From the IMG/VR virus record IMGVR_UViG_3300037297_000386: 64,000 nt of DNA; one strand, 5' to 3'. The DNA is from a virus (Duplodnaviria; Caudoviricetes). Shown here piece by piece: positions 22,810 to 63,900 of this stretch; positions within the stretch are counted from its first letter, which is position 1; each line of letters starts with the position of its first letter. The notes below the pieces were generated by a model. That model had not been told where the DNA came from. It saw only the letters and a program-made list of their open reading frames with translations, and did not search any database. Position numbers and translations under genes: made by a program.

Positions 22810-23205
22810 TTAGATTGCAGCTAAATAAGAAATTAAATAAGAAGTTCTTAGAGATGAAATATCTCCATGCTCTGTATTGGTGGGCTCTAATAAAACTGTT
22901 CTTGCCGTAGGTATGCCAGTATAAGAATAATTTGACCGATGCGAATGATAGCGATCTTGGTTAGATAACCTATTTAAAAAATAAGTTAATTCTATATGAT
23001 TAAGTTTGCTATTAATTATTATATCGTCGCGCTGTTTGCATATATTAGCAGGTTTATGTTTCAATGAAGCAATAACTATTGGCACATAATTATCACACAA
23101 ACAACTATTTTTGTCTCTAACTATTTTAAATCCTTGAAAAAAATATAATTTTCCTAGGCCGTATTTCTTTTTAATCTTTTTTATAAGTTTATTTTTATAT
23201 TTCAT
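22810..23205 (-). CDS. Tandem paralogue family member 6 (hypothetical)
   Basis: KKKYGLGKLYF...LxYFLNRL...LRTSYLISYLAAI. Confidence 0.7.
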   Translation of the reverse strand: MKYKNKLIKKIKKKYGLGKLYFFQGFKIVRDKNSCLCDNYVPIVIASLKHKPANICKQRDDIIINSKLNHIELTYFLNRLSNQDRYHSHRSNYSYTGIPTARTVLLEPTNTEHGDISSLRTSYLISYLAAI

Positions 23206-23210
23206 AAAAT

Positions 23211-23579
23211 TTAAATACCAGATAAATTTATTACTAATAGGTCATGCCTTAAATCATTCAAATTATTATAGTTTTTCCCTAAATCTGAAAAATATATTTT
23301 TTCTTTACCTTTAGACAAATTTTTAAGAACCATGTTTAAATTATGCGAATTTAGATTGTTATCAGTAATATTCTTTGTTGTACTGCACACTAAACTGCAT
23401 AATAAATCATTAAATCCGGATAAAGATCCATATCCATCAAATCCAAGATATTTGTATGTAAAATACAAATTTTCTACTCCATAATGTCTTTTTATACCAT
23501 CACATACTGCTTCGTTGACTTCATCGATCGTAAAATTACCATTTGCTATACCATTTCTAATGTCTTCTAAACTATCCAT
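23211..23579 (-). CDS. Tandem paralogue family member 5 (hypothetical)
   Basis: KRHYGVENLYF...IYFSDLGKNYNNLNDLRHDLLVINLSGI. Confidence 0.75.
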   Translation of the reverse strand: MDSLEDIRNGIANGNFTIDEVNEAVCDGIKRHYGVENLYFTYKYLGFDGYGSLSGFNDLLCSLVCSTTKNITDNNLNSHNLNMVLKNLSKGKEKIYFSDLGKNYNNLNDLRHDLLVINLSGI

Positions 23580-27221: not shown

Positions 27222-30200
27222 TTAACCAACGGCTACATCTTTACGACCAACTGATACACCGCGTGGATTTACAATCCCGATACCAATGATCTCGTTGACT
27301 ACCCAGCCTAATTTCAGCTGCTTCGGCTCGTCGGCTGGTAGAACTTCGATGTCTTGACGAACTGGCATTACACCAACAAATTCTGGATCAGCTACACCGA
27401 AAACAGTACCAGTTGGAACAACCTTACTAACGATAAGGTCGGCACCCCATAGATGTGCGAAAAGACCAGTCTGAAGAATTTCGCGCTGAGTGACCATATC
27501 TAGCTCACCGCCAGTTCCTGCAGACTGTCCACCACCGGAACCCCAGTTTAGAATATCATTAAATTCAACAATATTCATTAGGAACTTGGTTGTAACAAGG
27601 TCCCATCGATCTACCTGAACTTTGATTTCTGAAAGATCACGCTTTAGTAACCCAGCATCAGCAATATCCTGAGCGGTATTTTCGCCACCAAGATTTGAGT
27701 CACCAGCATAATCCAAAGCTGAGAAAATGTTAGCATCTTCTTGTGCTTGAATTTCTTGCAATTTGTTAATAGTTTTTATAAACTTACCAAATCATTTCTG
27801 TTTGGTTCTACACCTTTCGGTATAGTTCAGACTGTATCATCATCTTCTTTAGAAGAGCTTGGCATATCAGTCGTTGAGAATTGGAGTAATTTATATTTCA
27901 TACAATCTATAACATATGGTTTTATAAGTTTTGTAAGCTTAATGCCATTTTTTTTATTAAATGATAAATAATAATATTTTTTATTCCTATTATTATATTC
28001 ACATACTTTAGAACTTATATTAAAATTTACATATATGGCGTTTTGTAACCTATAGTTTTCTTCTTTTGTGAATCCCTCTGTAGATAATTTCATATCATAC
28101 TTTCTGGTATGTCCATCATCCATATACCAAATTGCCATCGCATAGGCCGAAAGCATATTTGATATATTCTTTTTTATAACCTTTTTTGTATTATCATAAA
28201 ATAATTTATGTAAATAATTTAATTCATGATGACAGATAGTAGTTAAATTGTATGTGACAGAATTCCTTGAATTCTGTTGTACATTCTGTCGTATCTTGTT
28301 CACAAAATTATTAAGCACCTGTTTTTTATAATGCAAGTATGGTAATTGTTTTTTACAATGATTAACAACAAATCTTTTTGTCTTACCATTATCTATATGT
28401 CCATCACCAAGCAAAGAACCAATTATAAACTCTTTCTGTTTTCGTGTGAATGGAATTTTGCGTAAATGATAATATTTTCTTTCTACACTTCTTATCGGTT
28501 TTATTCCATATTCTCTAAACCATCTATAAATTGTTCTTTCTCCGACTCCATAATATTCTGCTAAAACCTTTATTCCTTTGTGTGTAGTTTCATATGCATG
28601 TATCAATTCGCTCTTACAAGGTATTTTCCTTTTGCACACATATCCTCTTGATTCTATACCAAATTTTTTGAACCACTTTCTAACAGTTTTAACGCTCACT
28701 CCATAATAATCACCAATTTGTTGCATTGTTTTCATCTGATTATTGTACAAATCACACAGATTTTCTTTTGTAGGCACTTTGGATTACTCCTTTTCTGCTG
28801 ATTGCCCGTATCATTTAATTATTTTTAACTTAGTTTGATTGTAAATTATATTTCAATATAAATTATTTATGACTAAGTATAATTAACATTCGGGGTTTCC
28901 AGCATATAGCCAAGTTTAGAGCCCGCCGGAAATTAACGGGCTTTTTGCTGAGCACGGTCAATTACATTAAATCGACGCCTTTTAACTTCAGCAATACGAA
29001 CGGTCGGGTTAGAAACAACCTCGAATTCTGGAACACTTACACGATCTGAAAATGCACGTGATTCAGGAGCAGAACCGTTACTAGAAATAACAACGGCTGC
29101 CACATCGATATCTCTATCGTAGACAGGTAAAGCACCTTGTGGTACAATTTGTTACTCATCGTTAAGATGGGCCGAATCATCTCTGTTCGGCTCTACATAT
29201 CTCTATGTAGTTCAGACTATATCATCACCTCTTTTTGAGGGTTTAGCATTTAGTCGTTGAGGGACGGCAAAATTTTATACATAAAATCTTTCAGTATATA
29301 TTGCCTAACCAAGTTAGATAACAATTGTGAGTTTCTCTTGTTGATTGATATATAATAGTATTCTTTCTGGTTTCTATTATATTTTGCAATTTTAGATCTC
29401 ACATTAAATTTTGATTTCAGCATACTCTGTAAAATCAACTGTTCTTTGTACGAGAAACTATCAGTCGAAAGCCTTATGTTACACCTATTGTTTAGTGTTC
29501 CGTCATCCATTATCCAATATGCTAAAGATCTTTCAGTTACATAATTGGATAGCTCTTGACGAATTACTTTTTTGTTATTTTCATAAAACAAGTGTCTAAA
29601 GAATCTGAAATCATTATGTACTACTGTGACAAAAGAATACATTACAGAATTTTTTCTTTTATCTTCCTTCTTGTTTATAGAATTAACTAAATTCCCAAGA
29701 ATTGCCTTCTTGTGTAACACCAATGATTTTTGTTTTTCGCAATGTCCTATTTGAAGCCTACAACTTTTGTTCTTTCTTCCATGTTCACCAACAAATCCAT
29801 CGCCAAGAAGAGTTCCAACAACCATCTCTTTTTGCTCTTTTGTAAGTGGGACTTTCTTAATTAGTTCATATTTTCTTTGTTTCGGATTAGCATCAATATT
29901 TAGAATATAGAACCATCGATTAATAGTCTTTCGACTAACCTGATATATCTCTGCTATTTCGTAAGTTGTAAGTCTTCTATCAACATAAAGTTTTATCAAC
30001 TCGTTTCTGCTTGGTCTCTTCATTCTACCTTCCCTGCTGATTGTCTGCGTATCAAAAGTTTTAACTTAGGTACTGTTTTAGATTATCTTCTGTGAGTAAT
30101 CTGTATTTTCCTAAGTATTTCGATCTTCCAGACTTCCCAGCATACAGCCAAATTTTTCCTAAAATATTGCTATTTTAGGCCGCTACCGTTAACGGATCCA

Positions 30201-30471
30201 CAACTAGAACTCTACGTCCAACGCCTTGATAATCTAAGTTTCTACGAATTGGATTAGCCATAGCTTGGCCTAATGCAACCTTACCTTCCGTGGTCATTAG
30301 AGCCCTACGAATTAGCTCATCTTTTTGCTCTTCTGTAAAAGAAGGCTGGCCAGCAAGACCCTGACTGGCCGATTGGTTATTCTGAATAATACTAGCATAC
30401 TTTACGATTTGTGCTAATGCATCGCGATCGCTAGCAGCATTCAGCTCACCATGGGTATTAAACAATGACAT
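27222..30471 (-). CDS. Major capsid protein (HK97 fold), spliced from three exons: 30471-30192, 29144-28936, 27758-27222 (341 aa)
   Basis: Exons of 280+209+537 nt join in frame as ...VVDP-L-PQGALPVYDRDID...RAQQKAR-QEIQAQEDANIF...; strong AGGAGG SD; lies downstream of the protease/scaffold and decoration genes and is followed by a strong terminator. Exon 2 is missing from the ORF track. Confidence 0.9.
27759..28935 (-). mobile_element. Group I intron 2 in the major capsid gene
   Basis: 5' exon ends in U with P1 GCCCGU/GCGGGC; P10 AAUUUC/GAAAUU; P4 UGCUG/CAGCA; P7 CAACGACUG/CAGUC; ends AACAAAUUG (omega-G). Confidence 0.92.
27827..28777 (-). CDS. Intron-encoded LAGLIDADG endonuclease with two N-terminal HTH repeats
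   Basis: FIIGSLLGDGHI and MAIWYMDDGH motifs. Confidence 0.9.
   Translation of the reverse strand: MPTKENLCDLYNNQMKTMQQIGDYYGVSVKTVRKWFKKFGIESRGYVCKRKIPCKSELIHAYETTHKGIKVLAEYYGVGERTIYRWFREYGIKPIRSVERKYYHLRKIPFTRKQKEFIIGSLLGDGHIDNGKTKRFVVNHCKKQLPYLHYKKQVLNNFVNKIRQNVQQNSRNSVTYNLTTICHHELNYLHKLFYDNTKKVIKKNISNMLSAYAMAIWYMDDGHTRKYDMKLSTEGFTKEENYRLQNAIYVNFNISSKVCEYNNRNKKYYYLSFNKKNGIKLTKLIKPYVIDCMKYKLLQFSTTDMPSSSKEDDDTV
29145..30191 (-). mobile_element. Group I intron 1 in the major capsid gene
   Basis: P1 CCGU/GCGG; P10 GGUA/UACC; UAUGCUGGGAA ... AAUCAGCAGG; UCAACGACUA ... GAUAUAGUCU; ends AACAAAUUG. Confidence 0.92.
29250..30023 (-). CDS. Intron-encoded LAGLIDADG endonuclease with N-terminal HTH
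   Basis: MVVGTLLGDGFV and LAYWIMDDGT motifs. Confidence 0.9.
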   Translation of the reverse strand: MKRPSRNELIKLYVDRRLTTYEIAEIYQVSRKTINRWFYILNIDANPKQRKYELIKKVPLTKEQKEMVVGTLLGDGFVGEHGRKNKSCRLQIGHCEKQKSLVLHKKAILGNLVNSINKKEDKRKNSVMYSFVTVVHNDFRFFRHLFYENNKKVIRQELSNYVTERSLAYWIMDDGTLNNRCNIRLSTDSFSYKEQLILQSMLKSKFNVRSKIAKYNRNQKEYYYISINKRNSQLLSNLVRQYILKDFMYKILPSLND

Positions 30472-30509: not shown

Positions 30510-31328
30510 TTATACAGCATTAATCTTTTCAAAGTCGGTATTACCGACAGGTTCACGAATTTGAAAATCGTTACACAATTTGTATCTCATGCTTTCTATA
30601 ACATAGAATCTTATTATATCTTGCATCTTTTTGGTTTCCTTAGAACTCAACCAAAGTCTATGAGTATTTTTATATGATACTATATTAGCATTTAAACTAA
30701 AATTATTCTTAAGCATCTTCATTAATTTAACATGTTCATCTCGTGTAAAACAATCTGTACACATGTAGGTGCTTTTATTTCTTAAAGAATATGTTCCATC
30801 CTCCATGAACCAAACAGCTAACGATATTTTTTCTGTAAATATATGGTCTATAGAATCTGGCACAATTTTCTTTCCGCTAGCATTATAAAAAGTTTTTCTA
30901 AAATAGTTTAATTCAGGAACAGATAAGGTGCTAAAATTATAAAATACATAACTTTTGTCATATTTTTTATTATAAGCGACTTGTTTGCTAATATTAGATC
31001 CCAAATCATCAAATATATCTTTAATCCAATGTATATAATCTTTCTGCTTTATAGAATGACTTGTCTTATAACTAGAAGTTCTATTATTACATTTTGTTAT
31101 GTGCCCGTCGCCAAGTAAAGACCCGATTAAAAAATTTCTTTGATAATCATTTAATTGTCTGTTTTCAACTATATCTCTTTTTTTCTGAAATCTGGTTTTT
31201 ATATCAAATTTCTTGAGTGCCTTACACACCGTACTTCTATGAACGCCCATTTCTTTAGCTATTTCATATGTACTTTTCAATTGGTCAACATATAGCTTTT
31301 GTATAAATTCTTTATTAATTTTTTCCAT
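30510..31328 (-). CDS. Free-standing LAGLIDADG endonuclease with N-terminal HTH
   Basis: FLIGSLLGDGHI and LAVWFMEDGT motifs. Confidence 0.9.
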   Translation of the reverse strand: MEKINKEFIQKLYVDQLKSTYEIAKEMGVHRSTVCKALKKFDIKTRFQKKRDIVENRQLNDYQRNFLIGSLLGDGHITKCNNRTSSYKTSHSIKQKDYIHWIKDIFDDLGSNISKQVAYNKKYDKSYVFYNFSTLSVPELNYFRKTFYNASGKKIVPDSIDHIFTEKISLAVWFMEDGTYSLRNKSTYMCTDCFTRDEHVKLMKMLKNNFSLNANIVSYKNTHRLWLSSKETKKMQDIIRFYVIESMRYKLCNDFQIREPVGNTDFEKINAV

Positions 31329-31345: not shown

Positions 31346-32119
31346 TTAATTTAAAACAGACAATTTATATCTCATGCTTTCTATAATATAAGGCATTACT
31401 ATTTCTGATATTTCTTTTGATTCTTTTACATTAAAATATAAATTATATCGGCTATCTTTTATTCTAGATATTTTTGTATTAATTCCAAGTTTCGCTTTTA
31501 TCATAGATCTTAAAATTTCATGATCTTCTAAAGAAAAACAATTAGTACATAATATTATTTTGTTGGCTGCCTTTTTAAATGTACCGTCATCCATCAACCA
31601 TATAGCCATAGAAAAATCATCTAAATATTTCTCTATCTCTGGATTTATGTATTTTATATTATCTTTATAAAATAAATTTCTAAAATGCATGAATTCTGGA
31701 TGAGAATAAGATTTAAAACCACATGTAAAATGTGTTTTATTTTCTAAGACGGCTTTATTAAATGTTATATCACCAACATAACCAGACAATATTTCTCTTT
31801 TCCACTTAACATATTCAAATTGTTTTGTACTATGTCTAACTTCAAATCTTGCTGCTTTATTACTATTATTTAATGATATATGCCCGTCTCCAAGCAATGA
31901 GCCTACAATAAACTTTTTAATATCGTTAGTGAAACAAGTTTTAAATCTTTCTAAACATAATTTTGTATAGCCTGGAGCAATTCTTGATATATTATGTTTA
32001 ACAAACCATCTACTTATTGTTGTTTTGGTAACGCCGTAATGTTTTGCTATACCACTAAGACTTAGTGTCTTGTATAAATCCACCAATTCTTGCCTACTTA
32101 CATTGTACCTGTGTTTCAT
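31346..32119 (-). CDS. Free-standing LAGLIDADG endonuclease with N-terminal HTH
   Basis: FIVGSLLGDGHI and MAIWLMDDGT motifs. Confidence 0.9.
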   Translation of the reverse strand: MKHRYNVSRQELVDLYKTLSLSGIAKHYGVTKTTISRWFVKHNISRIAPGYTKLCLERFKTCFTNDIKKFIVGSLLGDGHISLNNSNKAARFEVRHSTKQFEYVKWKREILSGYVGDITFNKAVLENKTHFTCGFKSYSHPEFMHFRNLFYKDNIKYINPEIEKYLDDFSMAIWLMDDGTFKKAANKIILCTNCFSLEDHEILRSMIKAKLGINTKISRIKDSRYNLYFNVKESKEISEIVMPYIIESMRYKLSVLN

Positions 32120-32948: not shown

Positions 32949-34619
32949 TTAATATTTTTGTATTCTTTGGTAAGCTTGTATTAAATTATTATAATCTATT
33001 ACATGTCCTATTTCTGGCACCACGAAAATACCAGAAAATCTATCTGTTCCTGCTTTCCTATTAAATTCATTTTCTAAATCTCGTAATCTTTCAGCTGTAT
33101 CTCTGTCTAATTTTCCACTAGGATGCAGTCCTAAAAACTCTTGTATTTTCAATATGTTAGTGTCGGTAATGCCTGCTTTTCCAGTTTCTTCAACCGACAC
33201 TCCAATTTGCGAACTTAATTTTCCAATTTGTCCTGATATATCTTTAACAAACTCGACTAAGTTATTTCCTAGAGCAAGTGCCACTGATTTATCAGTGGCA
33301 GAATTAACCACTAAGTCCCATTTCTCAAGATTATTGGTAATTTTGCTAATTTCCGTGGATATGCCAGATATGTATGATCTGATTGACTCAGGAGCATTAT
33401 CTTCTCCTAGGCCACTATTAACATTATTAGCAAGATGTGTAATTTTAGAAATAGAATTTTGTACATCCTGTGTTATTGATTGTCCTATTCCTTTCGAACC
33501 AACACTAGATAATGATGATTGAATAGAAGTTCCAGCCGATTCTACTCGTTTTGGGTCGTTATTCCCAAACCAATTGTATACTTTAATTGCGCCATAACCA
33601 GCTCCAAGGGTAGCTAGTCCAAGACCCAAGCGTTTTACTGTTTCTTTTGGAGTAATCCCAATTAATTTTCTTTTTAAAGATATTCTAGGATCCATTCGTT
33701 TTATCATATCGCCAACAAAACCAGGAGACATCTTCATCTTTGCCCACCTAGATGCATTGCTTGGATTGGCCATAAATAACTTAAAAGTTTCAGAATTACT
33801 TGGATCTGATGCTAAACTAATAGCTTCCTGGATAAATTTTCTATCATTAACGCCAGACCTGTTTAAACTATATACCTCATTAACATCGTCGATTAAATTT
33901 CTAAGTTCTGGTACATTTCTCTCAAGTCCACTACCAAAAAACCCACCAGCTTCTTTACGTTCCACATCTAGAAGATTTTTTAAATTTTGTAACCCATTTG
34001 GTTCACGCATAACATCCTTAGCTCGGTTTATATAATGCAGTTGAGCTTCTGCTTGTTGCACTCTTGACAATGGGTCACGTATCGTATTACGAACATAATT
34101 TTTTATAGCTTCTGGCCCACTACTTTTTATAGACTCTGGAACTATAATAACTCCTAAATTATCACCTACAGCACGCTGTATAAATTCATCTGGGCTATTT
34201 TCTAGTAGATCTCCTACTCTTTTAATGGGCCCTCCCGATTGTATCACTGAATTAGCTTGCGCTTCTGCACCAGATAAACTTTGATGTATTTTGTTTGTTG
34301 TTTCACGCACTCTTCTGGCAAAATCGCCAGCAAAATCTTTATGTAATGTGCTTTCTATCAATTCTCTTCCAGATTTTTCGACACCTTTTATACTTTGTTC
34401 TACAGCCTCGTCAGCTCCTTTCCATAAATGCCTTAACCCAGAAAATACATTATCACTGCTAGATGCAACAGCTTTTGCAGCCTGTTCGGCTGTTTCACGT
34501 CCCAATTTACCGCTAATCTTAGATACGAGGGTAATTACACCTTTCCCTAGTGCACTTAAAATTCCTGCTTGTTTATATAGCGGGCTTACCCTGGAACTTA
34601 TTTGCCTGGTGCCTTCTCG
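32949..34619 (-). CDS. Probable internal virion/ejection protein with C-terminal PG-binding-like motif, reached by -1 frameshift from 34598..35041 (fusion ~697 aa)
   Basis: The frame is open from 34628 with no ATG/GTG/TTG until 34505. The extension reads REGTRQISSRVSPLYKQAGILSALGKG; C-terminus has ILKIQEFLG...SGKLDRDT. Confidence 0.7.
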   Translation of the reverse strand, partial: REGTRQISSRVSPLYKQAGILSALGKGVITLVSKISGKLGRETAEQAAKAVASSSDNVFSGLRHLWKGADEAVEQSIKGVEKSGRELIESTLHKDFAGDFARRVRETTNKIHQSLSGAEAQANSVIQSGGPIKRVGDLLENSPDEFIQRAVGDNLGVIIVPESIKSSGPEAIKNYVRNTIRDPLSRVQQAEAQLHYINRAKDVMREPNGLQNLKNLLDVERKEAGGFFGSGLERNVPELRNLIDDVNEVYSLNRSGVNDRKFIQEAISLASDPSNSETFKLFMANPSNASRWAKMKMSPGFVGDMIKRMDPRISLKRKLIGITPKETVKRLGLGLATLGAGYGAIKVYNWFGNNDPKRVESAGTSIQSSLSSVGSKGIGQSITQDVQNSISKITHLANNVNSGLGEDNAPESIRSYISGISTEISKITNNLEKWDLVVNSATDKSVALALGNNLVEFVKDISGQIGKLSSQIGVSVEETGKAGITDTNILKIQEFLGLHPSGKLDRDTAERLRDLENEFNRKAGTDRFSGIFVVPEIGHVIDYNNLIQAYQRIQKY

Positions 34620-35041
34620 AAAGGGAGATCATCAATCTTTTCAAACAATACTATTGCCTTATCATAAACTACGTCAGAAAGGTTAGATTCTCCTATATCG
34701 TCCAATCTATCAGCCACTTTAACAAGTTCATTAATAGCGTGTGCGTATCTACCAACAAGAGAGCCGGTGGGCATCTTATTAAGCATTTCAATCAATTTAT
34801 TCTGTTGTTCAATTTGATTTTCTACAAGCCCGCCATCTCCACGTGCCTCAGCTACATATACTGATTCTGGATGTGCTTGTTCTATAATATTTTTTTCTGG
34901 AGATTTCTGTCTTTTTTCTTCAATAACCCTTTTGTCTTCTTGATGTGGGTTAGGTGAAGGTGTAGCAGTCTTCTTGATTCCAAACAAATCCTTCTCTTCA
35001 GCAATTTTCAAAAACTCTTCCAATACTATGGAATTATTCAT
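34598..35041 (-). CDS. AHP-motif/helical-tag protein, 147 aa
   Basis: IIEQAHPES...LVENQIEQQ...MPTG and LVKVADRLDDIGESNLSD. Confidence 0.75.
   Translation of the reverse strand: MNNSIVLEEFLKIAEEKDLFGIKKTATPSPNPHQEDKRVIEEKRQKSPEKNIIEQAHPESVYVAEARGDGGLVENQIEQQNKLIEMLNKMPTGSLVGRYAHAINELVKVADRLDDIGESNLSDVVYDKAIVLFEKIDDLPFEKAPGK
34619..34625 (-). promoter_or_regulatory. -1 ribosomal frameshift slippery heptamer C CCU UUC
   Basis: Canonical X XXY YYZ in the zero frame of 34598..35041, six sense codons before its stop; the -1 frame opens one codon upstream. Confidence 0.75.
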
Positions 35042-37422: not shown

Positions 37423-39072
37423 TTAAAATTGGTTTAAAATAATTCTTAAAGCATTACTATAACCATCTGGATTTGATAAATCGTGATATCTTTCTGATTG
37501 TTCTACCAATTTACGTATACGATTTTGTACACCTGGTTCATCTGCCCATCTAGAGTCCATTCTTACTAAATGACTATAAACTTGATCTTGTAATTTAAGT
37601 CTTGTGCGCTCGTCGGCAGCTACTCTTTCAGTAACTCCTGGCTTCCTAATCTCTTTAGGAGACTTAATGGCCATTTTGATGTCATAAGCTTCCTTTAATT
37701 TGGCACCACTACCATAATTTTCTTTAATATATGATAAGGCTCTTTGTATTCCTCTTCGCATTGGACGCGTAACACCATCTTCAATTCTATTTATAGGAAT
37801 GCGATGTTCACTTTTTACAAAATTTTCATCCCCAAGAATCCCCTTCATCATCTTCATATACCAATCAGCAAATTTCTTGGCAGTTGGCCAATCTGTTAAG
37901 ACCCTTTGTTTCCACGACATTGTTTTTATATCGCCAACACCTGCTTTACCCTTTTCATCAATAGGAGTCTTCATGTCATAAACCCCGGGAGCTTTAGATT
38001 CTACCTGTTGTTTTAAAGCCACATACTGGTTCATATATGGATACACAGCTGAAAGTGCTTCGTTAAATGTACTGCGTAGTTCGGGTTGTGAATTTACAAG
38101 TCTTTCAATATTATGTCGAGCTTCCTGAAAACTTCTGTTTTTTTGGTTTTGAATTATTGAACGTTGGCCACCAGCCGTAGCACCACCAGGAAGCCTGGAT
38201 ACCATAGTGTCAACCATAGTATCAACCATCTGTTTTTCAACATCTCTTAAAGCATTTTGTTGTGTCGTAGTAACTGCAACTTTTAATATTTCATCAATTC
38301 TATTAGCTGCCTCTGAATGTCCTATATTATCCAATTTATCGGCCAACATATTAAGAGTATAAAACACATAATCTTCCCTAGTGGCAATTTTGTTAATCGC
38401 CTTACGCAATTCTCCAAGATGTTTTCCATACCCCATCTTGTTAAGTTTCAGGTATAAATTAACCAAAGCCGCATATGTGCCTTTTGGAACACTTCTAGCT
38501 ACCCCAACATCGGCATCTTGCTGTTCGACAATTGTCTCGACCAAATTTTCATCAGTCTTACTGTGTGTTAATTCAGTTTTTGTGCCACCGCCAGGATGGG
38601 CCTTTTCTACAAGTTGTTCTCCAGTCTCACCAGATACATTATATATACTTTGTTCAGCGACTTTCTTACTGTCATTTTTATTGGTAGCTTGCTTATCTGA
38701 TTGAATAGATTGTGGAAAATGTTTTTTTAATAGTTGAAGAACCATTGGCTGCCAGCCAAACTCTTTAAATAATATTTGCCCAAGTTTAACCGGATCAGTT
38801 TTAGGAGGTATTTTCCATTGTTTTAAACTATTAAACAAACCAACTAATATTCTTTCTTTTCCCAAATCATTCAAAAAAGCGTCAAAAGCTTTTTTAGCTT
38901 CTGGAATAGCAATTGTAGTTCCCTTCTCAAAAGTTACCACCCCAGGTTCAGTACTCTCAGATTGTTCTACTACTTCAGTGGCTTCCTGAGCTTGTTTGAC
39001 TAGACCATTATTAACAGCAATACGGGCATATTCATTTAGAACTGTGCTTTGATCAAAACCGATATGTTTCAT
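37423..39072 (-). CDS. AHP-motif/helical-tag protein, 549 aa
   Basis: KAHPGGGTKTELTHSKTDENLVETIVEQQ and LADKLDNIGHSEAANRIDEIL. Confidence 0.7.
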   Translation of the reverse strand: MKHIGFDQSTVLNEYARIAVNNGLVKQAQEATEVVEQSESTEPGVVTFEKGTTIAIPEAKKAFDAFLNDLGKERILVGLFNSLKQWKIPPKTDPVKLGQILFKEFGWQPMVLQLLKKHFPQSIQSDKQATNKNDSKKVAEQSIYNVSGETGEQLVEKAHPGGGTKTELTHSKTDENLVETIVEQQDADVGVARSVPKGTYAALVNLYLKLNKMGYGKHLGELRKAINKIATREDYVFYTLNMLADKLDNIGHSEAANRIDEILKVAVTTTQQNALRDVEKQMVDTMVDTMVSRLPGGATAGGQRSIIQNQKNRSFQEARHNIERLVNSQPELRSTFNEALSAVYPYMNQYVALKQQVESKAPGVYDMKTPIDEKGKAGVGDIKTMSWKQRVLTDWPTAKKFADWYMKMMKGILGDENFVKSEHRIPINRIEDGVTRPMRRGIQRALSYIKENYGSGAKLKEAYDIKMAIKSPKEIRKPGVTERVAADERTRLKLQDQVYSHLVRMDSRWADEPGVQNRIRKLVEQSERYHDLSNPDGYSNALRIILNQF

Positions 39073-40659: not shown

Positions 40660-40986
40660 TTACTCTTCGGACGACTTGTCTGATTGAAAGCTATCAACAA
40701 TAGTCTTTAATGCATCATCAACTAAATTAGATGCTTCTTCAGCGCCCATGTCATCAAGTTCACCAGCCAGTTTCACCAAATCATTAACCACACTTATTAA
40801 GCTGGCTTTTTTATCATTTTTTTCTTTTTCCTTATCCTTTGCCTCATCTTTCTTTTCTTCCTCGTCTTTTTCATCTTTATCATTTTCATCTTTATCATTT
40901 TCATCTTTTTTAGCTGCATTCTTAACCATATCAGTATTTAATAAGGATGCAAGTTCTAAAATCATTTCGTCTCCAGCTCGTGTCAT
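40660..40986 (-). CDS. Small charged helical-tag protein, 108 aa
   Basis: KDEND repeats and LVKLAGELDDMGAEEASNLVD. Confidence 0.75.
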   Translation of the reverse strand: MTRAGDEMILELASLLNTDMVKNAAKKDENDKDENDKDEKDEEEKKDEAKDKEKEKNDKKASLISVVNDLVKLAGELDDMGAEEASNLVDDALKTIVDSFQSDKSSEE

Positions 40987-42585: not shown

Positions 42586-45500
42586 TTACTTCCAACCTAG
42601 TCCGTTCAATTGCGTAACTAAATTTGGTTCTACCACTGGATCTGCACTTGCAGTAACTTCCATAGCTTTTGTAGCTGCATCGGCGCCAACTACTGGTAAT
42701 TTACCAGACTTTTTGTTAGATTTCATACTAGCCACAATGCGCTTAGTCGACTCAAAAGCCGCATTGTCAAACTTCATAATTTCATCGACATATGTATCTA
42801 GGGCAACTCGACTTGGTTCTATCATACCTTTTTCTTGAGCCATAAGACCAAGATCATAAGCCCGACGTAGCTTTACTTTATACGTTTTGTCTTCAGCTTC
42901 TTTTTTCTTGCCAGCAAAATCTTTACTTAGATCAGCACCAAAACTTCCCGTGTCTGGACCTTGGCTCCAATATTTCTTCCAGTATGATGCTGCCGCCGAA
43001 TCTACTTTGCCTTCTGCTACTAGTTTATCTAAATCTTCTACTTTGAGTGCTCCCTTGACAAACTGCTCCTGTAATTTCATCGCTGCTTCACGCACATTGC
43101 GTGGGCCAGATTCAGCAACATCACGCATGGCATCATGAATTTCAGATATTGTCTCGACTTTTGCTTCATCAGTCTTAGTGTGGGTTAATTCAGTCATAGT
43201 GCCTTTTCCACCGGGATGAGCTTCAAAATAAGTTTTCTCTGTCGCATTTTCTGCTTTACCAAGATCAAGCTCATACTTTCCAAGTATCTTATCAGTTGCT
43301 TGTACAACTAACTCTTCACGAGCTCTTTTGCGTGCTTCCTTAAGAGAGGCTTCACTCTCAACAACCTCGTCATCAGCATAACTAGAAGAATCATTAATAA
43401 GATCCTCTAAACTATCATCAGTATCTACTTCGGTGACAACACAGTCATCGGCCGGCACACCACAGTCATGCGCTTGACCAGGAACTAATTTGGATCCACA
43501 CTGCTCACAAAACTGTCCATTACCCATAGCTTTTGCTAGCAAGGCTGCGCGATTTTCGGATCTAATTTTTAATGCATCTTCTAAAAGTTTTTGGGCTTCT
43601 TTTTTATCTTCCTTGTCGTTTTCATCTTTCTCTTCTTTCTTATCCTTATCGTCTTTATCCTTATCGTCTTTCTTATCTTTGTCTTTACCTTTCTCTTTTT
43701 GGAATTTCTCTAGACCAGGAGGAAGTTTACCAGCTTCTTTCTTCTCATATTTTTCATCCTCATTTTTAGCCTTCTCTTCTTTTTTATCTTTCTTGTCGTT
43801 TTCATCTTTCTCTTCTTTCTTATCTTTATTTTTCTTAGCCTCAAGAACCATAGAAGTTTCTTTAAGAATAGTTTGTGAGTCTTCCCATGCTTGTTCAGCT
43901 GCCTTAAGCAATCTTTCATTCACTTCACCATCCAGCGCTTCACTAATAAGGGCTAGTTCATCAGCTGACTCGTTCAGAAGAGATTCTACTTTTAGAACTT
44001 CTTCGCGAGAAGCCAATGCACCTTCCATTGGTGCCATCTCTGGCGTCTTTTCAGCAGCTTCACCCTTGGAGTCCTCATCGATATTAACATCAATATCAAC
44101 TAATTCTTCTTCCATACCTGAAGCTAGATCACGAATTTCAGCAATTTTTTCTTCCATAGCATTTAATGCTGAATCAATTTTACCTTGCGTCTCTTCTTTT
44201 GGCTGTTTAACTTCAACTGGCTTTTCGGAATCTTTAGGAGCTGTTTCTCCACCTTCTGAAGGAATAGGTTCTCCTAATTGATCTCCTATTGGAGCCATTT
44301 CACCACCTGCTCCACCTGCTCCACCTGCTAATGGATCTGTCATAGGAGGTTGGGCTCCCTTCAATAAATAAGCAACGCGATCGAATCCTTCAGAACGAAT
44401 ATACTTTATAACATCTCCGCCATATTCTCTGGAACTCAGGTAATCCCAATTCTCATCTATATCATCACCAAAAATTTCGGAGCCGGTAGCCGTCAAAATA
44501 AGCTTGCCACCAGCATAAATATCCCATCTAGAGGCACTTTTACATAGCTGTCCATCATGATCAGCAACTTTTGTAAATTTTGCGCTAAGCTTGGCACGAA
44601 GTAACTTTTTCTTAAGTTCCATATCGCCAGGAACAGTGCCATCTTTTCCGCCCATATCATACAATCCCTGAAGATGTTTGTCTTCATTATTGCGAACTTT
44701 CTCTGCCATTGGGTCTTTTTCATACTTTGGTTTTCCAGGAGTAGGCTCATTAACACCACCACCGCCTAACCAATAAGCTCGACGTTTCATTGCCCTTTCT
44801 TCTAATTTAGCTTTACTCAAGTTTAGTCCATTACGACCAGCGTCACGTAATTTTTCCTCATCGCCAGGGTGCAAACCTTCTGATCCTGTTTCTAATGGCT
44901 GACCTGTCATTTGTTTGTCTTCTTTATTTCGAATGCTTTCTGCATCCTCTTTTTCATACTTTGGTTTTCCAGGAGTAGGCTCATTAACGCCACCACCGCC
45001 TAACCAATAAGCTCTTCGTGCCTTTGCACGAGCACGCAATCTCGCAGAATTCATGTTGTTCTCCTCCTTAGAGACTTTTTTAAGTTCGTTTAATGATTTT
45101 TGCATACTTTCCACCTTGGATCGAAGGAGACGTAATTCTTCTAAATAAGCACCCTGCTTGTCTCCTTCTTTACTTGCATATCTTTCTGTTGGTATCCCAG
45201 ACAATGGTGTAGAAGTTGGCAGTCCTTCTACACCCTCTTCTGACATGGGGCTCCAACTTGGACCACCAGGAGTAGGTCTCATAGGTGGTATAGTCTCATC
45301 TTCTATTTTTTCAATCGATTTATCTTTACTGATCAATTTTGTAATTTCTGCTAATATTTCTGCTGCTGCTTTTTCAGCACCCGCCTCTTTCAGCTCTCTA
45401 TAAGTAGCTGTAAGTTGAGCAAGAGTTCTGGCTTTATCCTCGTCCATTTCAGCAGCTTTTTCTAAATTTTCACTTTGCATCAAACTACTAATTTTTATTC

Positions 45501-46368
45501 GTATCTCATTAACAGTATCAGCTAGACTTTGTAATTCAGTTGGGTTTACACATCTTTGGTGCGTAAGTTCATCTATTCTATCTTGCTTATTTTGCACATA
45601 AGTATTTAGACTAGCTATAATATTCCTTATTTTAGCCCTGCCATCAGCCCCATTAACAACTAAACTAAGTTCAATCGGTGACAGATCTAAATTAATTTCA
45701 CCATAATTCTTCCTAGCAAGAATACACGGACAATATTCTTTCTCTGTGACGGCCACATTCCCGCACTCAGTACACACAGACCGCCCAACTGCTGTTCCCA
45801 TAGAAACACAATTTGCGTATCCAGTCTCAACTTTGCGCGCCAAATCCGCATAATTCTTTTTATCTAATGCAAACAACGCATGAACACGCTTAAATTTTGG
45901 ATCATAATATGTATCAATAATTATCCCGCGGATTCCATCAACGCTATCCGAACGATGATCCTTGCAAAGTGGTTTTCCAATCCACAGTTTATATGCTTTG
46001 ATAAGTTCAGCTTCACTAAATATATCTCCATTGGCATTTTTATATGGCATTATATTATCTGTCGAAACCCATCTAACCGAATTTTTGCCACTTTTGTTTT
46101 TAAACTCTTCAAAAAACCCAGACACAGGCTTGCCGTTTTTATTCATATTCGGTTCGCCAGTCTCTTGATTTACCAAAGAAGCTTCAGCTGCATGCATAAT
46201 AACCGCATGTCCGTATAAAAAATCTTTAGCTTTTGGAGCAACTCTTCGTAATTTTTTGGCTAATTTAACAAATCTTTTTAATACCAATTCATCCTTAAGG
46301 GCCTGTTTTGGCGACAAAATATTTTTTTCGGAACTGAATGTTAAATTTTCACCAAATTTTTCAAGCAT
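42586..46368 (-). CDS. Prohead protease fused to a long scaffold/internal-protein region (~1260 aa)
   Basis: NANGDIF...KPLCKDH...GIIID...VSMGT...CTECG...YCPC...IELSLV..GAD is a HK97/herpes-type prohead protease. It is followed by coiled coils, K/D/E tracts, a Zn-ribbon and an AHP motif. Start moved to the ATG behind GAGGAG. Confidence 0.85.
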   Translation of the reverse strand: MLEKFGENLTFSSEKNILSPKQALKDELVLKRFVKLAKKLRRVAPKAKDFLYGHAVIMHAAEASLVNQETGEPNMNKNGKPVSGFFEEFKNKSGKNSVRWVSTDNIMPYKNANGDIFSEAELIKAYKLWIGKPLCKDHRSDSVDGIRGIIIDTYYDPKFKRVHALFALDKKNYADLARKVETGYANCVSMGTAVGRSVCTECGNVAVTEKEYCPCILARKNYGEINLDLSPIELSLVVNGADGRAKIRNIIASLNTYVQNKQDRIDELTHQRCVNPTELQSLADTVNEIRIKISSLMQSENLEKAAEMDEDKARTLAQLTATYRELKEAGAEKAAAEILAEITKLISKDKSIEKIEDETIPPMRPTPGGPSWSPMSEEGVEGLPTSTPLSGIPTERYASKEGDKQGAYLEELRLLRSKVESMQKSLNELKKVSKEENNMNSARLRARAKARRAYWLGGGGVNEPTPGKPKYEKEDAESIRNKEDKQMTGQPLETGSEGLHPGDEEKLRDAGRNGLNLSKAKLEERAMKRRAYWLGGGGVNEPTPGKPKYEKDPMAEKVRNNEDKHLQGLYDMGGKDGTVPGDMELKKKLLRAKLSAKFTKVADHDGQLCKSASRWDIYAGGKLILTATGSEIFGDDIDENWDYLSSREYGGDVIKYIRSEGFDRVAYLLKGAQPPMTDPLAGGAGGAGGEMAPIGDQLGEPIPSEGGETAPKDSEKPVEVKQPKEETQGKIDSALNAMEEKIAEIRDLASGMEEELVDIDVNIDEDSKGEAAEKTPEMAPMEGALASREEVLKVESLLNESADELALISEALDGEVNERLLKAAEQAWEDSQTILKETSMVLEAKKNKDKKEEKDENDKKDKKEEKAKNEDEKYEKKEAGKLPPGLEKFQKEKGKDKDKKDDKDKDDKDKKEEKDENDKEDKKEAQKLLEDALKIRSENRAALLAKAMGNGQFCEQCGSKLVPGQAHDCGVPADDCVVTEVDTDDSLEDLINDSSSYADDEVVESEASLKEARKRAREELVVQATDKILGKYELDLGKAENATEKTYFEAHPGGKGTMTELTHTKTDEAKVETISEIHDAMRDVAESGPRNVREAAMKLQEQFVKGALKVEDLDKLVAEGKVDSAAASYWKKYWSQGPDTGSFGADLSKDFAGKKKEAEDKTYKVKLRRAYDLGLMAQEKGMIEPSRVALDTYVDEIMKFDNAAFESTKRIVASMKSNKKSGKLPVVGADAATKAMEVTASADPVVEPNLVTQLNGLGWK
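44716..45014 (-). repeat. Two ~65-bp direct repeats in the scaffold region (44716-44780, 44949-45014)
   Basis: Both encode RRAYWLGGGGVNEPTPGKPKYEK. Confidence 0.9.
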
Positions 46369-46379
46369 TTTAAAACTCC

Positions 46380-47528
46380 TCAATCCTCTTCGTCTTCTTC
46401 AATACCTTCTAAAAATTTTTCTAATTCTTCTTCCATTTCATCAGACATTTCTACTTCTTCTGTGGAATCACATTCATCATTACTATCTTCTGCATCTATT
46501 GCTTTTTCATCGTCAGAATTAGCATCAAAAAAATCTAAAGTATTTTGACCTTCATCATGTTTAACGGCATCGACAATATTGTTAAACATTTCCTCTAAAT
46601 CTTTTTTAGATGGTTTCTTGCCGTGCATTAATTCAAAAAATCTCTTTTTGGCTGACTCTAAACCTTCTTGGGTTTTCTCCATGTCTTTAACTATCTTGTC
46701 TAATCCTAAATCTTTCGCCGAATCAGAAAAATCGAAATACCGTAGACGTCTAAAAAGTTCATTAAGACTTTTAATGGATTTTGAATTATTTTGATCGGCG
46801 TCATGTACAAAAATAATTAAATTCTTTTTAACCTTATCGTCTAATTTTTTAAGTGGGGCTTTTGGGCGGGCCGAAAATGATTTTAAAGCACGATCAACTT
46901 CAGAGGCAAGATCAAATTTTCTTTCTTGATCGAATTCATCAGCCATTTTTACCAACACAGATCTAATTTTATTCTCCACTACACTTGCCATTTTTCTCTC
47001 AGTTGATTTCATATCTTCCTGTGTAAACAACGGCTTCCTGTTTTCAACGACTTCGTGAGTTCCAGATAATGCTTCATCCAGATCTTTTTCTCTGCCAACA
47101 TGTTTTGGGTCAAATTCGAACTCTTCTTCTGATAATGTTGGTAAATCTGCTCCCTCTTCAAACCAACCACCTTCTTCTAATTTTCTAATCGTCTCTTTTG
47201 CAGCTTCTGGGACCATATATGTTTGTAATTCTGGAGTATCGCTAATATCACCAAGATTTAAGCCATCAGTCCATTTATCATGAATTTTTGGAATAGCTCG
47301 TACCATATTACCGCGCCCATCTGGGTCTGGCTCTAGAACTAAATCGAAACTGATGGCTTTTCCAAGGGACATAATAACTTCTGGCTTCAATCTAATGAGT
47401 TCAACCAGATCAATGTTCCCACCAGCTTCTTGTGCTAAAGATAAAATAAATTTATCCACTCTATTTGCCATTTTAAGTAAACCAGATTGATTAAGGCGAT
47501 CGGACAATTTGATCAATTTTACAAACAT
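46380..47528 (-). CDS. Helical-tag protein (two copies), 382 aa
   Basis: LIKLSDRLNQSGLLKMANRVD and LVKMADEFDQERKFDLASEVD. Confidence 0.75.
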   Translation of the reverse strand: MFVKLIKLSDRLNQSGLLKMANRVDKFILSLAQEAGGNIDLVELIRLKPEVIMSLGKAISFDLVLEPDPDGRGNMVRAIPKIHDKWTDGLNLGDISDTPELQTYMVPEAAKETIRKLEEGGWFEEGADLPTLSEEEFEFDPKHVGREKDLDEALSGTHEVVENRKPLFTQEDMKSTERKMASVVENKIRSVLVKMADEFDQERKFDLASEVDRALKSFSARPKAPLKKLDDKVKKNLIIFVHDADQNNSKSIKSLNELFRRLRYFDFSDSAKDLGLDKIVKDMEKTQEGLESAKKRFFELMHGKKPSKKDLEEMFNNIVDAVKHDEGQNTLDFFDANSDDEKAIDAEDSNDECDSTEEVEMSDEMEEELEKFLEGIEEDEED

Positions 47529-60700: not shown

Positions 60701-60962
60701 ATCCAATAAATCTCCGAATTTTTTGTGCCATAAGCTTTTGTGAATAACTCATGGTTTCTCCCAAGTCTTCACTTTCACGATATGTTAAACTTAATTTATC
60801 ATATATCTTTTTAATTGTGTCTATAACAGATTGAGCATGTGTTATATTTTTTCTAGACATAGATATCTCAAATTCCCTATTTAATGTCGTCAGGGCCTTT
60901 CGTATCGTATATTGATTATTATAGTCAATATACTTATCTATTTTTGTAAATAAATCTATCAT
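60627..60962 (-). CDS. Hypothetical protein, 111 aa (possibly the decayed N-terminal part of the HNH relic)
   Basis: Overlaps the portal stop; its C-terminus resembles a degenerate HNH segment. Confidence 0.4.
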   Translation of the reverse strand: MIDLFTKIDKYIDYNNQYTIRKALTTLNREFEISMSRKNITHAQSVIDTIKKIYDKLSLTYRESEDLGETMSYSQKLMAQKIRRFIGYLIKRLKYDFGVGNYEQEIEQTIN

Positions 60963-63900
60963 GGTTTAATTGGCAGTGGTGTCCCACCTCCTGGCGTTGT
61001 AGCCGGGCCTTTAACACCTAATTCGCCTCCACCAGGACCAGGAATTATTGGACCACCCATACCAGGAGGAGCGCCTAATGGTGATGGGGCTCCTGTTGGA
61101 GGACCCCCTAATGGCGGTAATCCGCCGCCCATTGGGCCACCTAAACCACCAGGTACCAATCCTGCACCAGGGATACCAGATTCCTCTGCTCCCGGCGTAC
61201 CAGGTAATGGTGTTTCAGTTGGTTCTATAATATCTTCATCAGCTTTAATAGCTCTCAAAGCGCCTAGTGTCATTCCTTGTAATATTACAGCTTCCTTAGC
61301 TGTTATGGCATTATATATCATCTCTTCTTTTATTAACCTACGTTCTTCTTCCATATTGAGACCTAAACTTCTATATAATGTTGTCTGAGAAACTTTATTA
61401 TTCTGTGCTAAATTGTTTAATACATTTATATAATTATCCATATCAAACAATATCATTCGATTCCATTCCACTTCTGGAACTATTAACTTTTTATCCCCAT
61501 CCTTATACTCATAAAACTCTTGTATTTCACTAATCGGAGCGAATATTTTTTTGGTTAGCCACTGCGCCATCATATTTCTAAATGATTCATATCGCTGTTT
61601 TAATACTTCCAACCCAACAGTCGCACTATTAAAAGATGCCCCTTCTTGTGTAACTACAGCCTTTGGAACCATCAAACCAAACAAAATATTATCTAAAATA
61701 AAATTCATATCTGGTGTAATATCGATAATAGCGCCACTGGCTCCAACACGTTCAACAGATATTCCTGCATGAGATATTATCTTAAAGTCTTTGTCGTATT
61801 GAGCACTGTTCCCTAATATTATTAATGACTTATGACGTTTAGTAACAAATAATCCTCCAGGAACAGTAAAACACCATACCTTTCCATTATATTTTGTTTT
61901 ATTAAGAGTAGCACATTTGGATTTTGGATTTTGTCTATACATTGGAAATCTTCCTTTAGATCCGTCGCTCCAATTTGTAATCCAGTATTCCTTACCTTGC
62001 CCATTTTTAGTTTTATATACACTAGGCGAATATCCAGCCAAAAATGCAAGTTCAAAAATATCATTCGCTAAATTTTCAGATATAGTACTATATTTAAAAC
62101 CACATGTATTATTTTTATTAACATATGTGGTTCCATCACCATTGTTCAATGCTTTTAATAATATTTTCATTTGTCGAGGAGAAATAGAATACACCCACCT
62201 AGGAATTCGTTTATTATGTGAATTGCATTTACCATTTTCACCTATTTCATTAAAAATATGTCTAACTAATTTAGCATCATACACAATACCTTTCCATATT
62301 GATTTATGTTTATTTTCAGAAAATCCAGAACCATTATTAATAATTCTAGACTTAACCGTTTTGTTAAAATATTTAGCGATTTTCGTTAAATTATTTTCCA
62401 TCGCAAGTTTTTCTTCAGTTTCTTCTTCTTGGTATAAATTAATACTATTTGGATATTTATTATTTATAATACAAACATATCCTTCACTAATAACATTGCC
62501 CAAAAACTCCAGATAATCATCTGTTTTTATTTCATGTCCACATACATTTGTATACTCAATTTCAGTGCCATTAAAATTAGTTACCGCTCTAAACCTATAA
62601 TTAGTTTTAGACATGTTTTTTGCTTTTATAAATTCCCAATCAGACCACCCATCTTTTAATTTTCTACTAACAAACATTCTATGATTCGGAGTAACCATAG
62701 CATCTACTTGCTGCCCATTAAAATGATACATTTCACCATTATAATCATATAAATGAGATTTTAACGGAACACGGTATTCTAATTTTTCAGTATCTTTGTT
62801 AAAACAGGCTATCTTGAAACCAGGTTTAATGCTAGCTCTATAAGACCCATCATCGTTTTTAGTATAATCCATTACTTCATTATATTTTTTAAATCCTTTA
62901 TTAGTCAAAACTTGTGTTTGTTCATCGTGACATTCAAATGTTTGTCTCCACTTTTCTAAATCATCACCAGTTGGATGATATTCACCCTCAGCTGTTCCTC
63001 CAACTTTTACGATAGTTATTGGATTTACAAGATTGTCAGCTTGTGCAAATTTAGAGTTTCCTTGAATAGTATACAAACCATTGCGACGAGTAATAAATAA
63101 ACCAGTTGGAACTTCATAACACCAGACTAATCCATCATAATTTATTTTATCTATATTAGCCCCACCATGATTTGGATTACCATATATTAATGGTTCTTCT
63201 CCGTAATTAGTATTAGACCACGTAATAATATATTCGGTTGACTTATTGCTAACATTAGATATCAATATATTTGGAGAAAACCCACATTTATACACAAGCT
63301 CGCTTACATCATCTGCTAACTGTTTAGATACAGTAGAATATTTATAAGCAACTGATTTATTTTTATATTTACTTTTTATAACAGTTCCATCTCCTGCTAA
63401 TAATGCATTTAATAAAACCTGTAAATGTTCCCTGTGTAATTTAAGTATCCAGCGAGGAATTCGTTTATTATGAGAAGTACAATTTTCTCCATCTCCTATT
63501 TCTTTTATAAATAGATTCGTTAATTCCTTATTACATATCTTTCCTTCCCAATATTCATGTGGAGAATGCCTATTGAATCCAGCACCACGAATTTTCGTGT
63601 AATTATTACAATATAAACCTAAACTATTTGCAAAATTATTTGTACATTTAAATATTTTATCATAGTATTTTGACCTTGTTTCTTGCCCAATGATTATTTT
63701 GTTATCCGATCTTTTACCATAAATATAATTTTTATATATACAACCTTCGCTTAATAAATATCCTAAGAATTCCATATAACTGTTGGTAGAAATTTTCGAA
63801 TCAAATATTTCTATGGTGTCTCTTTTTTCTCCAATCCAATCTGCATGTGTTTTAAAACGATAATAACGCGATTTAGATATATTTTTGGCCAACTCAAAAT

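Follow-up and report, generated by a model that had tools for sequence, protein, structure and literature searches.

In phage T7, a −1 frameshift in the major capsid gene (10A/10B) gives the protein a short C-terminal extension, and in the Escherichia coli dnaX gene, which encodes tau and gamma, a −1 shift at A AAA AAG leads the ribosome into an immediate stop codon. Frameshifting is also employed for the tail assembly chaperones gpG and gpGT of lambda (Levin, Hendrix & Casjens 1993; Xu, Hendrix & Duda 2004) and, in the −1 direction, for the major head protein of Lactobacillus phage A2 (Garcia et al. 2004), according to the passages of PMC5221750 in which these studies are cited. Heptamers of the class H_HH.U_UU.Y are among the most efficient −1 motifs in E. 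coli, C_CC.U_UU.C being described as giving "high level frameshifting"; C_CC.U_UU.A is shift-prone too, above background in the same organism, and U_UU.U_UU.C is among the heptamers used by the orfA/orfAB genes of the IS3 family (PMC4066793). The subject of this article is a pair of coding regions, here called A and B, on the minus strand of a 64,000-nucleotide stretch of DNA (hereafter the window) from the IMG/VR virus record IMGVR_UViG_3300037297_000386 (Duplodnaviria; Caudoviricetes). Comparison of related loci indicates, with high probability, that A and B are joined by a programmed −1 ribosomal frameshift at the heptamer C CCU UUC, and that this frameshift is real, conserved and previously unannotated. 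No published frameshift in the A/B family, or in the head modules of giant phages generally, was found in the literature.

In the proposed mechanism, a ribosome translating gene A would reach CUC CCU UUC with the proline transfer RNA (tRNA) in the P site and the phenylalanine tRNA in the A site, and a fraction of ribosomes would then slip back by one base to CCC UUU, both tRNAs re-pairing, probably with the help of a small hairpin located 5 nucleotides downstream. Unshifted ribosomes would stop six codons past the Phe codon and release the 147-amino-acid protein A, and shifted ribosomes would read CGA GAA GGC ACC and onward, for 556 codons, to give an A-B fusion of 697 amino acids. Because B has no initiation site of its own in the window, it would be made solely as a C-terminal extension of A. 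Sister clades would reach the same pair of products otherwise, one by a truncating slip within an A-B open reading frame (ORF) and another by a start codon belonging to B itself. That the shift occurs, at whatever rate, we infer from the anatomy of the site and from its conserved phase, frame and slipperiness, which are observed directly.

The Proposed Slip Site and Its Reading Frames

Gene A (34598..35041, minus strand; 147 amino acids) starts at ATG 35041, upstream of which lies AGGAG, and its 3′ end reads ...GAT GAT CTC CCT TTC GAG AAG GCA CCA GGC AAA TAA, the TAA stop being at 34600-34598. The slippery heptamer C CCU UUC (34625-34619, minus strand) lies at a distance of 8 codons from this stop, and counting from ATG 35041 places it in X XXY YYZ phase, the zero frame over it being CUC CCU UUC (34627-34619) and the −1 frame CCC UUU. 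One codon 5′ of the heptamer, the −1 frame opens after a TGA (34631-34629), continues as TCT CCC TTT CGA GAA GGC ACC and meets no stop for 559 codons, until the one at 32949. The first codon after a shift would be the CGA at 34619, and the 38 codons up to TTG 34505 include no ATG, GTG or TTG. This bridge (34506..34619, minus strand; REGTRQISSRVSPLYKQAG...), which has no canonical start, contains the junction motif of the family, G-T ... (V/I)-S-P-L-x-K-x-A, with VSPLYKQA at 34589-34566. An ORF finder reports the remainder of the frame as ORF B (32949..34505, minus strand; 518 amino acids) with a TTG start, and the sequence that precedes TTG 34505, AAGATTAGCGGTAAATTG, has no Shine-Dalgarno sequence. 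On this arrangement of frames, ORF B is really the C-terminal 518 residues of a predicted trans-frame product of 141 + 556 = 697 amino acids, with the junction DDLPF-REGTR, and the predicted product of unshifted translation is the 147-amino-acid protein.

A sequence-only reading of this DNA had proposed most of these elements, namely the heptamer in the zero frame of gene A, a −1 frame that opens one codon upstream and runs without a stop into 32949..34505, the lack of a start codon for 38 codons, an extension encoding QISSRV and YKQAG, a stem formed by GGCACC...GGGUAAGCC, and products of 147 and about 697 amino acids with DDLPFREGTR at the junction. All of them were recovered when the minus strand was read afresh: the phase, the openness of the frame up to TTG 34505 and beyond, and the product sizes agree, both motifs are present, and the stem lies at 34613-34583.

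The long minus-strand frames of the window (19,165 codons) contain 153 in-phase X XXY YYZ sites in which Y is A or T. The median length of open −1 frame downstream of these sites is 6 codons, compared with 558 codons at the site in gene A and 139 at the next best. Assembly error at the site is excluded, because a marsh-metagenome contig from an independent run matches positions 34416-34665 of the window exactly and carries no indel. A 674-nucleotide contig of a diverged relative is present in the source sample as well, in which 8 of 67 letters differ over 34560-34626 (the heptamer and the hairpin) without gaps, and more than one strain of the phage group therefore co-occurs there. A relation to the +1 sites of the type UCC_UUU_CGU (influenza PA-X, amalgaviruses) was considered and rejected, since UUU CGA belongs here to the destination frame, the zero frame being CCU UUC.

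Conservation of the Heptamer and the Bridge in Split Relatives

Ten loci with available DNA are split, that is, have A and B in different frames (the window, L001, L007/L008, L011, L012, L015, L016, L017, L073 and L074), and they represent about eight lineages. An in-phase slippery heptamer is found at the same place in 10 of the 10, and B occupies the −1 frame in each of them, with the identity of A falling to as low as 40%; conservation of the heptamer and of the frame overlap in related phages, to which the sequence-only reading had looked for confirmation, is thus seen in every split locus. The heptamer occurs in four variants: C CCU UUC in the window, L001, L007/L008 (as CUC CCU UUC), L012 and L017; C CCU UUU in L015; C CCU UUA in L016 and L074; and U UUU UUC in L011 and L073. 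Three of the four (C_CC.U_UU.C, C_CC.U_UU.U and U_UU.U_UU.C) fall in the class H_HH.U_UU.Y, which was measured in E. coli, an organism that may not be the host of the phage. Across lineages the sequence of the heptamer varies, and its phase and predicted slipperiness are constant.

The −1 frame of L011, L012, L015, L016, L017, L073 and L074 opens 2-21 codons 5′ of the heptamer and then continues for 523-603 codons into a homologue of B. The split loci share a junction of the form (P/F)-F-x-x-G-(T/S/A) ... (V/I)-S-P-x-x-K-x-A, and in all of them except L007 the −1 frame offers no canonical start until 22-85 codons past the heptamer, behind the conserved motif. A phage that is 90% identical (L001-L006, 19 contigs) has the heptamer and the frames of the window, and the TTG that the gene caller selected as the start of B corresponds to TTA in the window. 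In a 37%-identical phage (L007, L008), CUC CCU UUC is in phase with A and B is in the −1 frame; past the stop of A, this frame reads LSSRISPIHKKA in the relative and ISSRVSPLYKQA in the window, and the DNA differences within the bridge are mostly at third codon positions of the −1 frame. Because the protein is conserved through synonymous changes in this relative, the bridge is most likely translated, although it is start-less in the window.

These comparisons bear on the idea that A and B are two ordinary genes, with B starting at TTG 34505 (518 amino acids) and the heptamer and the open −1 frame being coincidental. The ORF finder does list 32949..34505 with this TTG, the protein database, in which close relatives of B are few, contains the 518-amino-acid form and the 536-amino-acid form of a close relative as called genes, and a third clade, described below, does express B separately from its own start. 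This explanation is nevertheless very improbable indeed, because no Shine-Dalgarno sequence precedes the TTG, the 38 codons upstream of it encode a stretch of protein that is conserved, through synonymous changes, in the 37%-identical relative and recurs in single-ORF fusions, the called starts differ between close relatives, one of them being TTA in the window, and the heptamer is in phase in all split loci and missing only where a real Shine-Dalgarno sequence and ATG exist. Homologues starting independently at TTG 34505, named in the sequence-only reading as a finding that would speak against a frameshift, were not encountered.

At the protein level, homologues of gene A number 117, at 42-89% identity, and 110 of the 117 have PF, PL, FF or FL within their last 14 residues and 0-11 residues ahead of the stop, a dipeptide that appears to be the amino-acid shadow of slippery heptamers; in L011, L012, L015, L016, L017, L073 and L074 the in-phase heptamer is what encodes it. 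Their C-termini are of a few types (...PF(D/E)(K/E)AP.., ...PL(T/K/E) and ...FF(E/K/Q)). The recurrent zero-frame tail (E/K)-A-P is an out-of-frame shadow of the conserved −1 codons GGC ACC, which suggests that the RNA or the −1 reading is under selection there.

Fused and Separately Initiated Relatives

A profile search with B recovered natural single-ORF fusions of A and B, comprising six proteins of 633-801 amino acids. Their junction, PF..GT....VSPL.K.A (for example, ...LPFDSGT....VSPLYKEA), matches the predicted slip product of the window, so that the A-B continuity claimed for the window is supported by natural proteins with the same junction peptide. DNA was available for five fused loci (L013, L014, L070, L072 and L078), which have one base more than the split loci between the heptamer and the hairpin (a spacer of 6 nucleotides versus 5). 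C CCU UUU is in phase in all five, though their mutual DNA identity is only 69-74%, and the codon that provides its first base is either UGC or the rare Leu codon CUC, which accounts for 3-6% of the Leu codons there; the joint expectation of the heptamer from codon usage is 0.012-0.13 per locus. The −1 frame reads CCC UUU UGA in L013, L014, L072 and L078, and CCC UUU UGC UAA in L070. Because the −1 stop thus follows at once or after one codon, a slip in the fused loci would release A alone.

Three further loci (L075, L076 and L077) have no in-phase heptamer, and in these B has its own Shine-Dalgarno sequence and an ATG at or over the stop of A, the separate B proteins beginning M-V-(K/R)-L-P-D-.-P-L-.-K-E-A. 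The association is complete among the loci with DNA: a start-less B is accompanied by the heptamer, and a B with its own start is not.

It is conceivable that one cassette, consisting of an in-phase C CCU UUY, a spacer of 5-6 nucleotides and a small hairpin, has been kept family-wide and is used both ways, extending A to A-B in the clade of the window and truncating A-B to A in the sister clade that differs by one spacer base, the third clade having lost the site and replaced recoding by two separately initiated genes. This two-direction use of the cassette is about as likely as not.

The difference of exactly one spacer base between fused and split relatives (6 versus 5 nucleotides) would also be expected if the window carried a broken gene, in which a 1-base deletion in the spacer had turned a single A-B gene into a pseudogene, or in which an assembly error gave that appearance. 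This is next to impossible, because the split form is the majority form of the family (about 110 of the 117 A homologues, from many samples), B is intact in every split locus (556 codons in the window), and the same sequence recurs in the independent run and in the 19 contigs of the 90%-identical relative.

The RNA Element Downstream of the Heptamer

The spacer between the heptamer and the hairpin is GAGAA in the window (34614..34618, minus strand), and its length is 5 nucleotides in all split relatives and 6 in the fused ones, so that a single spacer base sets the frame relation of A and B. It is followed by a two-part hairpin (34583..34613, minus strand) of the form GGC N CC.../...GG GUAA GCC, with an outer helix of 3 base pairs and an inner helix of 2-5 base pairs. 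In the window, CC-A-GG / CC-A-GG forms the inner helix, interrupted by a single A.A mismatch, the predicted stability is about −5 kcal/mol, and the zero-frame stop TAA (34600-34598) is contained in the hairpin.

In the consensus of the family, GGC N C(C/U) is situated 5-6 nucleotides past the heptamer and is followed, 8-29 nucleotides on, by (G/A)G (G/A)UAA G(C/U)C, and the two elements are paired by RNAalifold. Five alignable pairs are formed in 14 of 14 sequences, one pair being C-G in ten and U-A in four. The next 3-5 nucleotides of the inner helix are located within the variable part of the bridge; their sequence changes from lineage to lineage (GAC/GUC, UGC/GCA, UA/UA and others), and in each lineage the two arms are complementary. 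Permutation of the 3′ arms among 13 lineages showed 52 consecutive pairs observed versus 32.8 expected (p = 1e-5), and positions 3-5 alone gave 28 of 39 versus 17.8 expected (p = 5e-4). The small hairpin is probably a modest stimulator of the shift.

The same features are relevant to whether RNA polymerase, rather than the ribosome, slips on the T/C run, such that some messenger RNAs are one base shorter. Transcriptional slippage can occur on runs of T or A (review PMC5009743), and one subgroup of the family has T TTT TTC, with six to seven T in a row. Most members, including the window, have only CCC TTT, however, which is too short for efficient slippage; the conserved properties, namely the X XXY YYZ form and its phase relative to the codons, bear on the re-pairing of tRNAs and not on slippage by the polymerase; and a hairpin at 5-6 nucleotides has the spacing expected of a ribosomal stimulator. 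Slippage by the polymerase is scarcely credible on these grounds. There were no RNA runs among the listed sequencing runs that contain the window sequence.

Independent Initiation and Other Contrary Evidence

Several observations weigh against a programmed frameshift as the explanation of the locus. DNA was compared for 18 loci of a family with more than 120 members. The hairpin is weak, at −4 to −10 kcal/mol across relatives, with the copy in the window among the weakest, and its conservation partly overlaps conserved codons (G-T and V-S-P). A large stable structure downstream was considered and rejected, because stretches of 59-68 nucleotides past the heptamer fold like shuffled sequences (z-scores of −0.5 to +0.3). 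A conserved upstream stimulator resembling a Shine-Dalgarno sequence was likewise rejected, GGAGG-like strings being found in L007 and L012, at differing distances, and being absent from the window. The existence of separate A and B in the third clade means that covalent fusion is not indispensable for B. Moreover, the 37%-identical phage (L007/L008; L007:3992-4003) has a GGAGG followed four bases later by a GTG that opens the −1 frame five codons 5′ of the heptamer, and a further protein, P0126, has an ATG start at the equivalent place; because of these two cases, some lineages may also, or instead, initiate B independently.

A rival explanation places the initiation of B within the overlap or the bridge, where ribosomes would either use a non-canonical codon or reinitiate after terminating at the A stop codon; B would then be produced with the bridge and without A. 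The product from the GTG of L007/L008 would begin M-F-R-L-P-P-F, which resembles the M-V-R-L-P-D start of the separate B proteins (L075-L077), and L007/L008 may be an intermediate that combines independent initiation with frameshifting. Nevertheless, initiation in the overlap or the bridge is very improbable, because in the window, L001, L011, L012, L015, L016, L017, L073 and L074 the −1 frame contains no ATG, GTG or TTG from the point where it opens up to the conserved motif, and because no consistent near-cognate codon is found beside the zero-frame stop, which itself is 0-8 codons past the shift site. It would also leave the four always-slippery, in-phase heptamers and the rare CUC codon unexplained. 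The preferred explanation is a programmed −1 frameshift.

Properties of Proteins A and B

The invariant core of gene A is AHPE.VYVAEARGDGGLVEN...MPTGSLVGRYA. The AlphaFold model of A has a predicted local distance difference test score (pLDDT) of 70.6 overall and 94-97 for residues 100-130, and a predicted template modelling score of 0.36; the modelled chain is helical or extended, with a helical hairpin confidently placed towards its C-terminus (helices 93-115 and 119-136), and the N-terminal part, including the invariant AHPE..VYVAE.RGDGGLVEN segment, is poorly predicted. B is modelled as an all-alpha protein with long helices, and the bridge (residues 1-36 of the model of the −1 ORF) is predicted to be disordered (pLDDT <50). 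No fold in the PDB or BFVD matched the model of B at E <= 0.001. Searches of A, B and their direct neighbours against Pfam and PHROG returned nothing useful, apart from one weak tape-measure-like match for a 482-amino-acid gene two genes upstream of A, and the same searches of A and B gave no match to a tail-chaperone family. There was also no DNA or protein match for the region, A or B in the GenBank phage collection, which leaves no cultured or annotated relative for comparison, none in IMG/VR scans with B alone or with an alignment of B, and none in a scan of GTDB genomes with A.

The profile of A weakly matches two other head-module ORFs of the same phage, at 37423..39072 (E = 2e-3) and 40660..40986 (E = 3e-4), both on the minus strand. 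At about 35 distinct loci among L018-L066 (IMG/VR), the A domain is N-terminal in single ORFs of 370-600 amino acids from distant phages; most of these ORFs continue past the domain with a motif of the (K/Q)K.A type, KKEA being the commonest form, and with a hydrophobic stretch of membrane-like character. Because the C-terminal parts of these ORFs are not recognizably B, the A domain seems to be a transferable N-terminal module to which various payloads are attached. In L022, L023, L027, L031, L041 and L058, part of the A profile (about 37-135 at most) constitutes the C-terminal end of ORFs of 460-890 amino acids, and a check of these A-like C-terminal modules revealed no heptamer that is in phase and has an open −1 frame. 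An ORF starting M-A-L-K-(L/P)-L-(N/H)-P-G follows directly in L022, L023, L031, L041 and the fragment L030; L058 reads differently. Should the M-A-L-K ORF encode the capsid protein, the A module would form the C-terminal tail of a protease or scaffold protein there, which would fit a capsid-binding role.

A may serve as a scaffold-like or head-targeting domain, since portions of it reappear in further proteins of the head module and its gene lies downstream of the prohead protease gene and upstream of the major capsid gene, and the motif VSPL.K.A of the disordered bridge may be a maturation cleavage or sorting site by which B is freed inside the head. The fixed product ratio and the label "internal/ejection proteins", both of which the sequence-only reading attached to the pair, are unproven; the pair lies between these two head genes, and B matches no family or fold.

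Genomic Context

The record is 162 kilobases (kb) long in IMG/VR, with a CheckV completeness of about 40%, and the phage, which is uncultured, must be very large because its relatives are found on contigs of 200-480 kb; the samples are from wetland. All genes in this part of the window are on the minus strand. A portal-like gene (60959..63997) is the first in the operon and is followed by a polyprotein of 2,634 amino acids. Farther along come a 1,265-amino-acid protein with a head-maturation-protease domain (42586..46383), several uncharacterized genes, and then A and B. After B, a 221-amino-acid gene precedes the region of the major capsid gene (27222..30471), in which 27222..27761 matches the major head protein phrog_2522 (E = 1.7e-37). 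LAGLIDADG endonuclease genes (27827..28777, 29250..30023, 30510..31328 and 31346..32119) are located between B and the pieces of the capsid gene; a LAGLIDADG gene is likewise found two genes after B in L070-L072, and L001 and L007 have an uninterrupted 341-amino-acid gene there. By position, A and B occupy the usual place of head scaffold or core genes.

The second-best frameshift candidate of the window is an in-phase A AAU UUA (23223-23229, minus strand), five codons before the stop of a 122-amino-acid gene (23211..23579). The −1 frame is open there for 139 codons and is in frame with the next ORF, of 131 amino acids (22810..23205), which has an ATG at 23205 and no obvious Shine-Dalgarno sequence. 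Neither the 122- nor the 131-amino-acid protein has a PHROG match, and the site could be a second frameshift pair or a mere ordinary overlap.

Implications

All public records consulted split the locus into a 147-amino-acid gene and a start-less, wrongly shortened gene of 518-536 amino acids, so that more than 100 giant-phage genomes mis-describe a conserved head-module protein. Recognition of the shift would provide the true product of about 697 amino acids and a diagnostic junction peptide for metaproteomics, and would add a conserved −1 frameshift in the head module to the long-known tail-chaperone and capsid cases. Because split, fused and separate architectures are arranged around one slip site, the family lends itself to studying why product ratios are fixed by recoding in phages, and also how an N-terminal "tag" domain might sort cargo into the capsid. 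If the two-direction use of the cassette is correct, selection would act on the making of both A and A-B, and the majority product would have been swapped between clades by 1-nucleotide indels. The family would then be a natural experiment on the importance of frameshift-set stoichiometry for loading a cargo protein into a phage head.

Comparison with Known Systems

As predicted here, the mechanism in A/B is a textbook tandem-slippage −1 frameshift, and it is outside the gene families of lambda G/GT, IS3, T7/A2 and dnaX. The likeness to lambda G/GT and T7 10A/10B drawn in the sequence-only reading is accordingly upheld as regards mechanism and abandoned as regards family membership. As in lambda G/GT, the −1 slip would take place at a heptamer that is in phase and close to the 3′ end of a short gene in a phage structural module, the long product would share its N-terminus with the short one and enter a start-less downstream ORF, and the arrangement outlasts the divergence of the proteins. 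Unlike lambda G/GT, which is between the tail tube and tape measure genes, A/B is between the prohead protease and the major capsid gene, has no sequence or family relation to the lambda proteins, encodes an extension of 556 residues, uses heptamers of the CCCUUUY/UUUUUUC class, and has fused and separate relatives.

With T7 10A/10B and phage A2, the locus shares the involvement of a head-module gene, a shift near the stop and a C-terminally extended second product, which is the minor one in T7 and A2. In those phages the shifted gene encodes the major capsid protein and the extension is short, whereas here the major capsid gene is separate and the extension is four times the size of the zero-frame product. 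The fused relatives (L013, L014, L070, L072 and L078) are similar to dnaX in that a long ORF contains an in-phase heptamer, a −1 stop at once or one codon on, and a downstream hairpin. The shift of the window differs from that of dnaX in that it would extend rather than truncate, the heptamer is another one, no conserved upstream Shine-Dalgarno sequence was seen, and the protein is unrelated. As in IS3 orfA/orfAB, a short upstream ORF and a start-less −1 ORF would be joined at an X XXY YYZ heptamer; unlike IS3, in which a mobile-element transposase is produced with a strong pseudoknot as stimulator, A/B encodes a virion-module protein and has a small hairpin. By analogy, the nearest functional counterparts of the A/B shift would be lambda G/GT, IS3 orfAB and the capsid shifts of T7 and A2, with dnaX as the counterpart of the fused relatives.

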